Shown here in pieces: positions 4,074 through 20,444 of a stretch of 26,385 nucleotides of DNA; position 1 is the first letter of the stretch; every line of letters starts with the position of its first letter. Both the position numbers and the translations under genes were made by a program. The notes under the pieces are model-generated. The model was not told the DNA's origin and did no database searches. It saw nothing but the letters and a program-made list of their open reading frames with translations. Source of the DNA: a virus (lineage: Duplodnaviria > Heunggongvirae > Uroviricota > Caudoviricetes); IMG/VR virus record IMGVR_UViG_2909309443_000009; one strand, 5' to 3'.

Positions 4074-4259
4074 GCCATTCAATATCGGGTGCTGTTGACG
4101 TATCAACACGCATCAGCAGCACACGGTATTTCTTCCATTGGGTGAGAGTTGTAGCTTCTTCATCAGTTGCGATATCAGCATCAACAGCATCCTGACGCCA
4201 GGATATTTCACTGTCAGCTTTTTCCCGTAATTGGGATTTTTTAACTTCAGCAATAGCTA

Positions 4260-4472
4260 TTAATTCCTTTTGGTCGGCTGAGGAATATCTATCAGTGCTG
4301 GTTTTCCATTCAGTGTTCCAATCTGTTTTCCTGGTGGAATATCCATAAATAACTTCTTATGTTCTTCCTCACTGACTATTACACCATCATCAGGCCACAG
4401 ACCTGATGCCTCAAATTTTTCTTTCTCCGATATGGGGAAAAAGCCATTTGCTTTAGCGCTCCATACGTACAT
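4260..4472 (-). CDS. Tail fibre assembly protein, alternative copy, truncated (70 aa)
   Basis: Tfa-like N-terminus (MYVWSAKANGFFPI...) on the opposite strand, convergent with 3480-4073; premature stop suggests a decayed gene. Confidence 0.4.
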   Translation of the reverse strand: MYVWSAKANGFFPISEKEKFEASGLWPDDGVIVSEEEHKKLFMDIPPGKQIGTLNGKPALIDIPQPTKRN

Positions 4473-16977: not shown

Positions 16978-17316
16978 CTATTTCCCTGAATTTACGACGA
17001 AACTGTTCGAGCGGACTGAAGCACTCATGCTCATAGCCTTCGCGGAGGTAGATAACCCGTTGTGTTTCCGGTTCCCAACGAATGACTCTGACGGGCACTC
17101 CGTAGTGATCTTTGAACCAGCGGTTAACTTGTCGCAAAGGACTGTCTCCTTCTGCCGGTTGAAATCACCCACAGCCCACTCTGCAAAGCTGTGGGTTACA
17201 ATTTCCCTGTCACCTGGTACATTTACTGCATAGCAATACTCCACCTTCGCTTTTCCACCCGGTACAGGAAGCGCAATCAGTTGCGAGCGACGGTAGTGTG
17301 TTGTTAAACTGTTCAT
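16978..17316 (-). CDS. Hypothetical prophage protein
   Basis: 112-aa ORF whose start overlaps the stop of the CII-like gene (ATGA), consistent with a coupled operon. Confidence 0.4.
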
Positions 17317-17864
17317 GCGTTAGTTTCTCCACAGTCACGACACGCCACGGCGCCCGGAGCTGCACACTCGCGGGCGTCATTACTTTCTGAAATGCAAAAG
17401 ATTTTGTAGACCAGTGCTGCATGCTCCTGCAGCTTCGAAATTGAGAGATATAGCTCGTCGTTAATTGCAGTTTTCTCATGCGGTTCCACTACACCGTCTT
17501 CGATTGCTGAACGAATCTGTTTTGAATAACTGCCGATCTGTTCAATGACCTCCAGCAGGCGTTGGTTGATATCGGCGTTGTCCACATCCTCGACATCAGG
17601 AAGAGACACAAAGACGCCATTTGCAGACTGCGCCACAGCGTCAGCAATGAAGTGAGTTCCACCAGCACGTTGCAAAATCATTGCCCATCCCAGCGGGAAA
17701 ATCTGATCGCCATCGGCACGAAGGCGGTTAAATAATGCGTTCTCTGTTACATCCAGCCAGTCAGCAGCTTCAGCGTACCCCCCCGGCAACGCTGCGATAG
17801 TTTTTCTGACAGCTTTCACGTACCACTCAGGCTGTTTTTCTACTTTCCAGTGATGCTTACCCAC
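17313..17864 (-). CDS. CII-like / YdaT-family prophage regulatory protein
   Basis: 183-aa ORF immediately downstream of cro in the early-right operon; family assignment by position and general resemblance only. Confidence 0.45.
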
Positions 17865-18117
17865 GGTTCACCTCCTGTTCCTGTGGTTTAAACCCATTCT
17901 GGTTTTGGCTAGATTGAAAACGTGCCGGATAAAGAATCTGCATTTCGCTGACTTCACCCTTAAAAAAATTGGCTAAACGTTCTGCAAGCTCGATAGATGG
18001 AATCTGCTCCAGCCTCTCAATACGACTCAACGTCGCTGGATTGACTTGAACACCCGCAGCAACATGCTGCAAAGTGAAACCATGCGCCTTACGCACATTT
18101 CGTAATGGTGATTGCAT
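17857..18117 (-). CDS. cro: Cro-like HTH (XRE-family) regulator
   Basis: 86 aa, HTH GFTLQHVAAGVQVNPATLSRIERLEQ; divergent from the cI-type repressor across an operator region. Confidence 0.7.
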   Translation of the reverse strand: MQSPLRNVRKAHGFTLQHVAAGVQVNPATLSRIERLEQIPSIELAERLANFFKGEVSEMQILYPARFQSSQNQNGFKPQEQEVNRG

Positions 18118-18214
18118 ACGCCCTCCAAATATTGCGCGTTATGCATGTTATTTCACGCAATTATTTTGCGCAAGTTGATTTGCTTATCACGCAATAAAGA
18201 AATGTAATAAACGC
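18118..18214. promoter_or_regulatory. Divergent immunity promoter/operator region (OR-like) between cro and cI
   Basis: Repeated TCACGCAAT / TTGCGC(A/G) motifs (18132-18137, 18153-18161, 18166-18171, 18187-18196) in the 97-bp gap between divergent HTH regulator genes. Confidence 0.5.
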
Positions 18215-18907
18215 ATGAACATAGGAAACCGAGTCAGACAACTTCGCCAAGCGAAGAACATGAAAATCGCCGATCTCGCTGAAGCGATAGGAGTAGATGC
18301 GGCGAACATCTCGCGCTTAGAAACGGGTAAGCAAAAACAATTTACCGAACAAACACTGAGTAATATTGCCAAGAGCTTAGGTGTTGATATTGCTGATCTC
18401 TTTACCTCTGCCCACAAAAGTAATACTGTATATAAAAACAGTAATAATGAGGATGTTGCGCAGGTGAAGGATGTGTTCCGTATTGAAATGCTGGATATCA
18501 GTGCCAGTGCGGGAAATGGCCTTATCCAGGGCGGTGATGTCATTGATGTGATTCATGCCATCGAATACAGAACTGATAATGCTGTATCAATGTTCGGCGG
18601 ACGACCAGCCAATCACATCAAAGTTATCAACGTTCGTGGGGACAGTATGTGTCCAACCATTGAGCCCGGAGATCTCATCTTCGTTGATGTCAGCATCAAT
18701 CAGTTTGATGGTGATGGTATATATGTCTTTGGTTTTGATGACAAAATATACGTTAAAAGACTTCAAATGATTCCTGACAAACTGCTGGTGATTTCTGATA
18801 ACCAGATTTACCGTGAATGGGGAATTACTAGCGAAAACGAACACCGATTCATGGTCTTTGGAAAGGTCTTAATCAGTCAGTCGCAAACCCTTAAGAGACA
18901 TAATTAA
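18215..18907 (+). CDS. cI-type prophage repressor (XRE HTH + S24 LexA-like peptidase domain)
   Basis: N-terminal HTH (MKIADLAEAIGVDAANISRLETGKQ) and C-terminal S24 domain (INVRGDSMCPTIEPGDLIFVD ... KRL). Confidence 0.85.
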   Translation: MNIGNRVRQLRQAKNMKIADLAEAIGVDAANISRLETGKQKQFTEQTLSNIAKSLGVDIADLFTSAHKSNTVYKNSNNEDVAQVKDVFRIEMLDISASAGNGLIQGGDVIDVIHAIEYRTDNAVSMFGGRPANHIKVINVRGDSMCPTIEPGDLIFVDVSINQFDGDGIYVFGFDDKIYVKRLQMIPDKLLVISDNQIYREWGITSENEHRFMVFGKVLISQSQTLKRHN

Positions 18908-18961: not shown

Positions 18962-19001
18962 TTGCATATCTCGCAAATATCACTTGCATGTCTCGCAATT
19001 T
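18962..19001. promoter_or_regulatory. Two 17-bp direct repeats (TTGCATATCTCGCAAAT / TTGCATGTCTCGCAATT): OL-like operator candidates
   Basis: Share the core CTCGCAA(T/A) with the OR repeats (TCACGCAAT); located downstream of cI, upstream of the rightward (pL-like) genes. Confidence 0.4.
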
Positions 19002-19184
19002 AATTTTATCTTTTGTTCCAGACCAACTACAGGATTACAACAAAATCTGGTTGCAACACGGTGCATGTGTCGTAAGCAGTCAGTAAATGTCAAAAACGAA
19101 CAGGCAGGACGCCCACGAAGTAGCCGCCTGGGGCATATGAAGTCCAGGATGATTCGTTGAGTCATGTTGTGCCACTAGGCACTC

Positions 19185-19481
19185 ATGTTAAAGCAGGTGT
19201 ATGAAATGAAAGTCCAGATTTTAAACAATAACTGTGAAGTCGTTTGGTCATACGACATAGCCGCCCCTGTAGATCAGAGCGGCGATAGCTGGACCAATGG
19301 GAAACATCAGATTATGGCTGGAGTTGTGTTCTCTTTACGCCGTGCTTTGGAACAGGCTGAAGTATTTCCATCAGACCCTGAATGGAAATGGCCTTTTTCT
19401 ATTTGTCCAAATTCGGAGAGCACATTTCAGAAAATTGGTCAGAAAGTCGCACTCGAAGAGCATCAGCCAACTGTTTCCTGA
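19185..19481 (+). CDS. Hypothetical prophage early-left protein
   Basis: 98-aa ORF with RBS (GCAGGTG) before ATG; no recognisable motif. Confidence 0.35.
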   Translation: MLKQVYEMKVQILNNNCEVVWSYDIAAPVDQSGDSWTNGKHQIMAGVVFSLRRALEQAEVFPSDPEWKWPFSICPNSESTFQKIGQKVALEEHQPTVS

Positions 19482-19644
19482 TTTTTTCAGGTAACTCGTC
19501 GGCATCGCAGAAACAACAACGCTCGATCATGTTGAAAGCCGATTCGTAGAACTGTTTCTGCTGAGTGTCGCTGAGACAGGAAAAGAGCGACGTTACGATG
19601 ATTTTATTAATTGCATTATCAAGTTCTTTTTCATCAAAAGTCAT
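19399..19644 (-). CDS. Hypothetical small protein (81 aa)
   Basis: Good RBS (AAAAGGAAAATC-ATG) on the minus strand; Cys-containing; overlaps the 3' end of 19185-19481. Confidence 0.4.
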   Translation of the reverse strand: MTFDEKELDNAINKIIVTSLFSCLSDTQQKQFYESAFNMIERCCFCDADELPEKIRKQLADALRVRLSDQFSEMCSPNLDK

Positions 19645-19897
19645 TTGATTTTCCTTTTATGTATACGGGCTTAAAAGGATACCACCGAGCCTGAAGTGGT
19701 GAAAAGACAGGCACATAACAGCTAAGTATTTTCAACCAAAGAGAATCCTTAGCGTTGTGGTGAATGCGGCTCAGCGCACGCGGGTTAAGGTTGAGGCTGA
19801 CAGTCGACCTTCTGTGGATACCCACCCGTCTGGTGTGCAACCTTCGCCAGGCACCGGGAGGCACCCGGCACCACAACTTTATGCTGTGTGTAGTCCT

Positions 19898-19944
19898 GGC
19901 GGTACCAGTTTGTACCCTTGCTTCCGGCTGGTACCGTCCTTTTT
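19898..19944 (+). terminator. Rho-independent terminator-like hairpin within a GC-rich structured region
   Basis: GGCGGTACCAG ... CTGGTACCGTC 11-bp stem followed by CTTTTT. Confidence 0.5.
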
Positions 19945-20081
19945 ACAAAACAGAGAAGAGCATCACCGGACGACGGGCTCATAACCCAATCCATCCGGGC
20001 GGCTGCCACCGCAGGTGTTCTTCTCTGTTTTGTGGAGAAACTAATCGGCCTTGCAGGGTCGATATGATGAGGAGCAGCAAA

Positions 20082-20444
20082 ATGGCTAGCGAACGCAGTA
20101 CTGATGTGCAGGCATTTATCGGGGAGCTGGACGGCGGCGTATTTGAAACCAAAATCGGCGCAGTTCTCAGTGAAGTCGCTTCCGGTGTGATGAACACGAA
20201 AACCAAAGGTAAGGTCTCACTCAACCTGGAAATCGAACCATTTGATGAGAACCGTGTGAAAATCAAACACAAACTCTCATATGTTCGCCCGACTAACCGC
20301 GGGAAAATTTCCGAAGAAGACACCACCGAAACGCCGATGTATGTCAATCGCGGTGGTCGCCTGACTATTCTGCAGGAAGACCAGGGACAATTACTGACTC
20401 TTGCCGGTGAACCTGACGGAAAACTCCGCGCAGCAGGTCATTAA
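20082..20444 (+). CDS. Hypothetical prophage protein (120 aa)
   Basis: ATG at 20082 preceded by RBS GAGGAG; the longer ORF-track extension upstream crosses a structured non-coding region and is probably spurious. Confidence 0.5.
   Translation: MASERSTDVQAFIGELDGGVFETKIGAVLSEVASGVMNTKTKGKVSLNLEIEPFDENRVKIKHKLSYVRPTNRGKISEEDTTETPMYVNRGGRLTILQEDQGQLLTLAGEPDGKLRAAGH

Follow-up and report, generated by a model that had tools for sequence, protein, structure and literature searches.

What fills the interval between the repressor gene and the first early-left gene in a lambdoid prophage of the Shigella phage SfV type? The question is raised by a 26,385-nt stretch of viral DNA (IMG/VR record IMGVR_UViG_2909309443_000009; "the window" below means this whole stretch), which is 100% identical to SfV (U82619.2) and to many Escherichia coli prophages next to the tRNA-Thr gene and proA. 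The original prediction had singled out positions 19650-20065 as a GC-rich, structured non-coding stretch of about 400 bp with tandem terminator-like hairpins, lying where the leader of the early-left promoter (pL), with nutL and the tL terminators, would be, or else encoding a prophage small RNA (sRNA). The two readings are compatible, and both are supported. The core of the stretch, at 19754-19877, is by its sequence very probably a divergent RNA of the STnc100 family in the pL leader. We tentatively favor the view that the stretch forms an untranslated leader to the early-left operon in an SfV-type lambdoid prophage without N at the usual position, and that it acts in cis on read-through by RNA polymerase.

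The plus strand of this 416-nt interval folds at -173.5 kcal/mol, compared with -134.1 +/- 7.1 kcal/mol for shuffled sequences (z -5.57; 0/100 shuffles as good), and the minus strand folds more weakly (z -3.86). Five open reading frames (ORFs) over the region have no Pfam match even at E <= 1, and together with the shuffle test this bears out a structured non-coding stretch. The GC enrichment is real for ~19750-20030 (G+C 0.54-0.57, versus 0.38-0.45 in the flanks) and does not extend to the first 80-100 nt of the interval. Most of the thermodynamic signal comes from two hairpins in its downstream part, T1 and T2.

Homology and architecture of the core

A covariance-model search aligned 19732-19947 (plus strand) to the complete Rfam model STnc100 (RF02076; model positions 1-206 of 206) with 39.5 bits and an E-value of 6e-7 on 901 nt, or 1.7e-5 over the whole window. 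This is below the gathering cut-off of 47 bits, and an Rfam search at gathering thresholds returns no match in the window; the sRNA reading is thus upheld by a full-length but sub-threshold match. Canonical STnc100 copies score 44.2-131.4 bits, and other copies with the window's type of second helix (window-type copies) 34.7-36.9 bits. The 22-mer CACCGGGAGGCACCCGGCACCA at 19852-19873 is identical to the STnc100 consensus, with 0 occurrences expected by chance, and is present in at least 120 viral contigs of IMG/VR. The window copy has the conserved pair UGGUGAAU ... CACCGGGAGGCACCCGGCACCA closing a multi-helix junction, whose parts are as follows.

19754-19877, plus strand: core, a junction of five helices with P1 as the closing helix and a loop-loop pseudoknot
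19754-19762 with 19869-19877, plus strand: helix P1, GTTGTGGTG with CACCACAAC; then the junction AAT
19766-19781, plus strand: helix P2
19781-19785 with 19824-19828, plus strand: helix P3, CGGGT with ACCCG
19787-19793 with 19838-19844, plus strand: pseudoknot, AAGGTTG with CAACCTT in the P5 loop
19829-19835 with 19845-19851, plus strand: helix P5, TCTGGTG with CGCCAGG
19854-19868, plus strand: hairpin P6, CCGGG-AGGCA-CCCGG

A common plan could be read from 97 distinct copies. P1 has the consensus NNRUGGUG ... CACCAYNN with the junction AAU next; P2 is a short hairpin with a U-N-N-G-C loop and one bulged base, followed by P3, variable inserts and P5; the segment right after the P3 5' strand is complementary to the P5 loop; and P6, CCGGG-AGGCA-CCCGG, is nearly invariant and directly continuous with the P1 3' strand. 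P2 separates the window type (GCGGC-TCAGC-GC-A-CGC in the window) from the canonical one (CCCCC-TGTGC-GG-A-GGG, in another register). AAGGTTG can alternatively pair locally with TCGACCTT in the window, the choice of the minimum free energy (MFE) fold; in Salmonella phage ST64B this type of local pairing is weaker and the pseudoknot partner is retained. A tRNA-like reading of the segment ending in GGCACCA was rejected, CACCA being the P1 3' strand and the P6 loop being 5 nt long and not a T-loop.

Searching species-representative genomes with a pattern specific to the P2 of the window type brought up 21 more loci, spread over Escherichia, Shigella, Citrobacter, Lelliottia, Pseudescherichia, Pantoea, Buttiauxella, Klebsiella and Mixta. 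Copies 77-79% identical to the window's are present in the Salmonella phages ST64B and 118970_sal3 (sal3). Applied to a MAFFT alignment of 23 window-type sequences, RNAalifold recovered P1, P2 and P6, with five P1 pairs maintained through changes in both strands. Because the variable center of these sequences resisted alignment by MAFFT, it was parsed between two anchors, the end of P2 and the CA preceding P6, and also studied in an alignable subset. Anchored parsing yields 13 versions of P3 (e.g., CGGGU/ACCCG, CGGAAG/UUUCCG, CGAC/GUCG, UGGUGA/UCACCG), 11 of P5 and 14 of the pseudoknot (e.g., AAGGUUG/CAACCUU, ACUGACA/UGUCAGU, GAGCUGGC/GCCAGCUU, CAGUUAA/UUAACUG, GGCAAA/UUUGCC). Pairing between own partners is 100%, a figure that is partly by construction in the case of P5 and the pseudoknot; with partners swapped across lineages it falls to 81% in P3 and to ~50% in the other two. 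The best loop complement has a mean length of 6.3 nt, versus 4.2 nt for shuffled loops. The subset, an unfitted MAFFT alignment of 11 Pantoea/Mixta-type sequences, has 96% of cells paired, versus 32-42% with slid partners; its covariation score was reached by 0/500 shuffles, and three pairs of the pseudoknot helix are altered on both sides. Phage LLS has a compensated P6 stem, GGUGG-AGGCA-CCACC, with the loop retained. These compensatory changes, found across seven genera by comparison of sequences, support the predicted core pseudoknot.

Single prophages may hold STnc100 in tandem, often 484 nt apart (locus L009 at 1121-1300 and 1609-1794; also L012, L019, L036, L050 and L070); the second copy of L009 is without the exact 22-mer and still scores 72.8 bits.

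Terminator T1, hairpin T2 and the yfdP leader

Downstream of the core the leader continues to yfdP through four further features.

19878-19897, plus strand: linker, with the GU-rich motif GCTGTGTGTAGTC (19884-19896) immediately 5' of T1
19898-19944, plus strand: T1, an 11-bp stem with a 19-nt loop, then C and TTTTT (19940-19944); z -3.70 alone
19940-20038, plus strand: T2, a three-way-junction hairpin of -51 kcal/mol; z -7.77 alone
20032-20081, plus strand: 5' untranslated region of yfdP, with GTGGAGAA (20032-20039), a TTGCAG-loop hairpin (20044-20063) and the Shine-Dalgarno sequence GAGGAG (20070-20075)

T1 is exactly the first hairpin described in the original prediction, with GGCGGTACCAG (19898-19908) paired to CTGGTACCGTC (19928-19938), one G.U among the 11 pairs, and CTTTTT after the stem. 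It has the form of an intrinsic terminator and aligns to the terminator portion of the STnc100 model. Counterparts with unrelated stems and a T-run stand at the same distance after P1 in ST64B and sal3 (GTCGGCGTC/GACGCCGAC), in LLS (TGCCCATCG.../...CGGTGGGCA, scored by the terminator scan) and in locus L082 (GCGGCACC/GGTGCCGC, at the same site with a T-run); among relatives, four unrelated stem sequences occupy this site. Because the site and T-run persist while the stems do not, T1 is, on this comparison, an intrinsic terminator conserved by function and not by sequence. The motif GCTGTGTGTAGTC precedes the T1 hairpin in several core classes, independently of the T1 stem sequence. An ops/RfaH site in T1 (GGCGGTAC...) was considered and dropped: the match is 8/12 by eye and is absent from ST64B and LLS.

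For the second hairpin the predicted place and the 12-bp stem (one pair G.U) stood; the 3' arm had been misread. The stem pairs AACAGAGAAGAG (19949-19960) with TTCTTCTCTGTT (20018-20029), not CTCTTCTCTGTT, and encloses 57 nt with two sub-hairpins. Its outer part extends to ~25 bp, the T1 U-tract and an A-rich segment (19940-19964) pairing with 20014-20038, including the GGAGA of GTGGAGAA. Compared with ST64B and sal3, the outer stem shows one fully compensated pair and two wobble-compatible changes, and one inner hairpin changes from GCGG/CCGC to GCTG/CAGC in ST64B. The U-run of T2 (TTTT, 20028-20031) is 4 nt long and partly paired. In phages phiNP and LLS the hairpin persists with an enlarged interior and is followed by no U-run, so T2 appears from these comparisons to be a conserved structure and not necessarily a terminator; of the two tandem terminators proposed, only T1 stands as one.

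The mEp460, cdtI and Stx2c phages share T1, T2 and the yfdP leader at 96% identity. In Pantoea, Buttiauxella, Mixta and L082, the gene that opens the early-left operon is likewise preceded by GTGGAGA and a hairpin whose loop is (T/G)TGCAG and whose stems covary. An upstream ORF could begin with the TTG inside the TTGCAG loop, but this reading was discarded, since its peptide differs between lineages in sequence and in length (from 2 codons up), and the loop is accordingly read as an RNA motif and not a leader peptide. This combination of GTGGAGA and loop hairpin could be a protein-binding (boxB-like) or a translational element.

Position, promoters and boxA across copies

The gene order around the element agrees with the proposed lambdoid pL-leader position.

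17313-17864, minus strand: CII-family gene (protein-family match)
17857-18117, minus strand: cro-like helix-turn-helix gene (protein-family match)
18215-18907, plus strand: cI-type repressor with helix-turn-helix and S24 peptidase domains (protein-family match)
18962-18976 and 18984-18998, plus strand: putative OL operators TTGCATATCTCGCAA and TTGCATGTCTCGCAA, of a repeat family common to the cro-cI intergenic operator
18984-19012, plus strand: pL-like promoter within 18962-19012, with -35 TTGCAT (18984-18989), a 17-nt spacer and -10 TATCTT (19007-19012)
19676-19721, plus strand: upstream module, hairpin ACCACCGAGCCTGAAGTGGT (19681-19700) and then GAAAAGACAGGC
19721-19753, plus strand: 5' hairpin GCTAAGT...CCTTAGC of the MFE fold, overlapping the boxA position 19743-19754
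20082-20444, plus strand: yfdP (start codon at 20082), followed on that strand by yfdQ (DUF2303), yfdR and more genes as far as xis and int

Besides the two copies directly after cI, the operator-like 15-mer occurs once between cro and cI (18180-18194). Read directly from the sequence, the repeats after cI overlap the TTGCAT-17-TATCTT site, which the promoter scan did not pick up; we infer that this site is pL and the source of the transcript carrying the structured RNA. The RNA is co-oriented with cI and with yfdP...int on the plus strand. The ORFs between pL and the RNA (98 and 81 amino acids) have no Pfam match and are not arginine-rich, so that no N-like gene is seen at the usual place. 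The larger is the annotated orf33; the other, on the minus strand at 19399-19644, has a good Shine-Dalgarno sequence (AAGGAAAATCAAATG), converges on orf33 with an 83-nt overlap and is annotated in neither SfV nor RefSeq. If it is real, transcription from pL must traverse its antisense strand. The compact relative LLS has a single promoter-like site in the whole cI-yfdP interval (TTGACC-17-TAGATT), followed in order by the element (~190 nt downstream), T1, T2 and yfdP with no ORF between.

To place the family as a whole, reference proteins were located by tblastn around every copy, neighboring ORFs were clustered, and cluster representatives were checked in Pfam. Canonical STnc100 lies in 110/127 cases downstream of Q (PF03589, PF06530/DUF1133) and/or upstream of holins, endolysin or the NanS-p esterase. 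Window-type copies lie downstream of a co-oriented cI-like repressor in 33/48 cases and upstream of YfdP/YfdQ in 18/48; the window copy, between cI and yfdP, is not at the usual late place from Q to the lysis genes and nanS-p. No copy is antisense to its own operon. A promoter at P1 was scored as a sigma-70 match of at least 9/12 placed to start at P1, and the two groups compare as follows.

Canonical copies: promoter at P1 in 21/98, terminator within 150 nt in 69/98, boxA-like motif in 0/98
Window-type copies: promoter at P1 in 0/37, terminator within 150 nt in 22/37, boxA-like motif in 10/37

The 15/37 window-type copies with no terminator within 150 nt lead straight into a ribosome-binding site or leader, among them copies in Buttiauxella, Citrobacter, Lelliottia and Klebsiella. 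The best candidate for an own promoter of the window element reaches 6/12, and a CTGAAG-17-CATAAC site found by eye is weak; neither was retained. Their genomic context and the lack of an own promoter mark the window-type branch as a leader element and not a self-contained gene. Sequence matching the leader occurs in 2864/5426 complete E. coli genomes, 1361 of which have an SfV-type element (at least 80% of the query). The CPS-53 prophage of K-12 has lost the element and keeps the last 35 nt before yfdP, for which reason K-12 transcriptome data are of no help.

Just upstream of the element, 19676-19721 is ~95% identical in Klebsiella phages, and in Lelliottia and Klebsiella loci it stands just before the element. 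LLS has the module a short way past its pL-like promoter, close to where the transcript is predicted to begin (L271, ~1140-1175). The window's module was scored terminator-like on the minus strand by the scan.

The boxA of rrn operons is UGCUCUUUAACAA and that of lambda nut is CGCUCUUA; our nut-site test used the forms CGCUCUUA / UGCUCUUU. YGCTCTY occurs at a fixed offset just 5' of P1 in 9/34 distinct window-type sequences (e.g., GUGCUCUUUCCG, GUGCUCUCUUCG), and in several lineages the first eight bases of the boxA-like motif equal rrn boxA exactly. ST64B has GAACTCTTATCG at this position, and its close relative sal3 a proper boxA. The window element contains no boxB-type small hairpin.

The link to boxA reaches beyond the window type. 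In mEp460 and cdtI the boxA, the P1 strands and T1/T2 are as in the relatives and the window, and the interiors differ; unrelated interiors between the same shared parts are seen at ~3380-3500 in L147 (mEp460), ~3380-3500 in L148 (cdtI) and 1290-1460 in L270 (phiNP). The closing helix and its flanks act as a cassette that receives different structured domains. A pattern of boxA plus GTTGTGNTGAAT is present in at least 120 viral contigs; among the matches listed, 44 are in early-left and 47 in late contexts, and the commonest class is that of mEp460, with P2 GCGCAGGCUGAUGCGC and P6 GCCGG-AGAUCAGCA-CCGGC. The minimal boxA-linked class has a 37-nt interior. Lambda itself carries, in its late leader between tR' and S (lambda 44,849-44,942; L149 1050-1143), a boxA-like GUGCUCUUUCC directly before a 9-bp P1, GUUGUGCUG/CAGCACAAC (5' strand also given as GTTGTGCTG), which closes a 68-nt structured interior (z -2.1). 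By these features the lambda element is a sister class of the window's. A hairpin with a U-run follows it at ~1230-1265 of L149.

Several other RNA features were seen in the same genomes. In L135, L136, L160, L253 and L270 boxA comes directly after a tRNA-like 3' half (GGTCCGTTCAATTCGGACACCGGCA...) or real tRNA genes, an order that recalls the tRNA-boxA order of rrn spacers, and at L006 8314-8560 three tRNAs stand directly upstream of a canonical STnc100. The pR-side antirepressor regions of mEp460 (L147 823-1011) and cdtI (L148 914-1102), on the minus strand, contain C4 antisense RNA and isrK above the Rfam cut-offs. In the window, 4094-4271 (minus strand) gives a significant, sub-threshold match to the Rfam family IS009 over the full model length, with 46.7 bits (cut-off 117; E 5.8e-8); IS009 is named among prophage-associated RNAs in the Pas-sRNA preprint (bioRxiv 10.64898/2026.05.13.724894).

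Proposed read-through in cis and its alternatives

Core, T1 and T2 probably control the entry of polymerase into the downstream phage genes. A mechanism of cis read-through by the core, modeled on known systems, is possible, if a little less likely than not to be the right one. After induction, polymerase from pL would transcribe the core, and the folded core would stay on the elongation complex, giving read-through of T1 and later terminators into yfdP...xis-int; in many relatives the boxA-like NusB/NusE site directly 5' of P1 would take part. Such a mechanism would be akin to nut/N or HK022 put while needing no dedicated phage protein. Unmodified polymerase would halt at T1 and release an STnc100-like RNA of ~190-230 nt, which might also act in trans with Hfq in the manner of PasD. 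T2 abuts the yfdP ribosome-binding region. An arrangement of the nut/put kind is favored because key RNA parts are invariant among phages with different repressors and Q, because boxA is frequently joined to the P1 5' strand and an own promoter is lacking, and because a terminator lies 20 nt downstream at the head of a post-induction operon in N-less phages. In rrn-type complexes, NusB-NusE on boxA holds a 5' element at the RNA exit and aids long-range pairing (PMC8632103); by analogy, such a role would suit a boxA directly before P1.

Several observations weigh against read-through. Canonical relatives are validated Hfq-dependent sRNAs (PMC8550237), and none of the 98 canonical copies has a boxA. 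The window's own boxA position (19743-19754) reads GAATCCTTAGCG, a degenerate form that does not qualify as a nut-type boxA. The RNA is separated from the inferred pL by ~735 nt, with a possible convergent ORF within the gap. ST64B has a terminator-like hairpin and T-run, and LLS a similar hairpin, upstream of the element (both by eye, unlisted by the scan), and an antiterminator located downstream would be no help past them. Because lambda has the related late-leader element where Q already acts, the element does not simply stand in for a protein antiterminator. A 22-mer search allowing up to three mismatches, together with Rfam, over the whole HK022 genome gave no sequence similarity to put. 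The folding energy of the core alone is unremarkable (z -1.67), and the case for the core is consequently one of homology and covariation. For the window copy, a read-through role is suggested by comparison with its relatives.

The strongest competitor is a free-standing sRNA gene of the STnc100/PasD type, with its own weak promoter, its end at T1, and Hfq-assisted base pairing in trans, for which the place in the pL leader would be incidental. The full-length STnc100 match includes the terminator, and PasD1 and PasD2, which are related to STnc100 (bioRxiv 10.64898/2026.05.13.724894), are abundant, Hfq-dependent and validated by northern blots (PMC8550237). Among canonical copies terminators are common and good promoters at P1 occur, and the conserved, single-stranded GU-rich linker before T1 could be a seed. 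Against it, all 37 window-type copies lack a promoter at P1, and 15/37 have no nearby terminator and run on into an mRNA. The best-conserved part is moreover a five-helix junction with a pseudoknot and not a single-stranded seed, the orientation is always that of the operon, and boxA is linked to the element in relatives. We consider such a gene a serious candidate, though an unlikely one.

A sensing attenuator of the riboswitch type, where T1 formation depends on whether the P1-closed junction is occupied by a protein (host or phage) or a small molecule, would account for the aptamer-like plan, in which a P1-closed junction and a pseudoknot combine invariant nucleotides in junction and loops with peripheral helices that vary, and for the terminator or ribosome-binding site that follows the core, depending on lineage. 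It is improbable. Inspection across lineages with different T1 stems, in place of a systematic search, revealed no conserved exclusive pairing between core and T1; T1 stems are wholly different between lineages while the P1 3' strand is fixed; and interiors of very different classes occur between the same P1 strands, unlike a ligand pocket. An antiterminator pairing of P6/P1 with T1 was tried and rejected, its 6/7 match in the window being lost in ST64B.

Still less likely is that the stretch is only a pair of terminators, tL-type insulators silencing int, xis and other early-left genes, with a functionless structure upstream. T1 is a good intrinsic terminator, T2 combines very high hairpin stability with a short U-run, and the SfV authors annotated putative terminators nearby, although neither of those coincides with T1 or T2. 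This account leaves unexplained a core conserved with compensatory changes across seven genera, and the T2 structure is kept where its U-run is lost, in phiNP and LLS. Finally, a degraded protein-coding gene, as in the "frameshifted hypothetical protein" pseudogene annotated over the region by the NCBI pipeline (RefSeq), is hardly credible even though ORFs of 49-106 codons, overlapping in several frames, span the region, given that they lack Pfam matches (the original prediction had rightly called them implausible as proteins), that substitutions keep base pairs and not reading frames, and that the RNA family match is significant.

Set beside known systems, the favored cis-acting leader element is closest to STnc100/PasD1/PasD2. 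They share the full-length model alignment, the identical 22-nt P6/P1 segment, the P1-AAU-P2 ... P5/pseudoknot-P6 plan, a terminator ~20-60 nt after P1, and a prophage location co-oriented with the downstream operon. Apart from P2, the window copy differs in falling below the cut-off and in lying early-left after cI with no promoter; its close relatives have a boxA, canonical copies never. PasD is known as an Hfq-dependent sRNA from northern blots and RIL-seq in prophages of pathogenic E. coli (PMC8550237).

Lambda nut (boxA and boxB, bound by N with NusA/B/E/G) is likewise in the pL leader, upstream of terminators, and in relatives of the window element the structured RNA is flanked by YGCUCUY directly on its 5' side and by a GU-rich, boxC-like motif on its 3' side. 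The structured part, however, is a junction of 60-200 nt and not a 15-nt boxB hairpin, no N-like gene is present, and the window's boxA is degenerate. HK022 putL and putR are protein-independent antiterminator RNAs that bind the zinc-binding domain of the RNA polymerase beta' subunit. They too are cis RNAs in the early leader of an N-less lambdoid phage with terminators after them, and a core invariant across phages with different regulators is what would be expected for a host target. Yet put consists of two stem-loops of ~70 nt without boxA, as against five helices and a pseudoknot, and is found in the pL and pR leaders, the present family in the pL and late leaders; with no shared motif and no Rfam family in the HK022 genome, filing the element as put was rejected. 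The boxB-boxA-boxC order of rrn leaders is matched in relatives by a small hairpin, boxA, structured RNA and GU-rich motif, with boxA immediately preceding the first strand of a long-range helix, an arrangement shared with the 16S processing stem; the present setting is a phage operon leader and not rRNA, with no evidence here of SuhB/S4-type complexes. Lambda 6S RNA and StxS are also short structured RNAs from a stop at a leader terminator that modified polymerase reads through, but they arise at pR', depend on Q and have no sequence relation, and STnc100-type RNAs lie further downstream or early-left.

Literature searches with the conserved 15-mer gave no match, and searches for ST64B sRNAs and boxA-type prophage elements gave nothing relevant. 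The STnc100/PasD family was already known (RF02076). New, within the literature searched, are the divergent promoterless early-left branch, the covariation-supported structure of junction and pseudoknot, the connection with boxA and with sister classes, one of them in lambda, and the cis hypothesis that results.

STnc100 and PasD have been catalogued as prophage sRNAs of unknown function and serve as markers in the genomics of Shiga-toxin-producing and enteropathogenic E. coli, and the present region is labeled a frameshifted pseudogene in RefSeq. The conserved part of the family is an elaborate junction with a pseudoknot and not a seed; its divergent branch has no promoter and sits in the pL leader directly before a terminator; and that branch and several sister classes are joined to a boxA-like site. 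The family thereby becomes a testable candidate for RNA-based elongation control in many N-less lambdoid prophages. A broader proposal, which we hold to be rather doubtful, is that STnc100/PasD, the early-left element, and the mEp460-/cdtI-type and lambda late-leader elements are one widespread, unrecognized cis-acting module of boxA, P1-closed structured RNA, GU-rich motif and terminator, at the heads of early-left and late operons. If true, RNA polymerase with host Nus factors would be made termination-resistant without N, nut and put would be joined by a third type of phage antitermination site, and the expression of early-left genes in N-less phages of the SfV/ST64B type would be explained.

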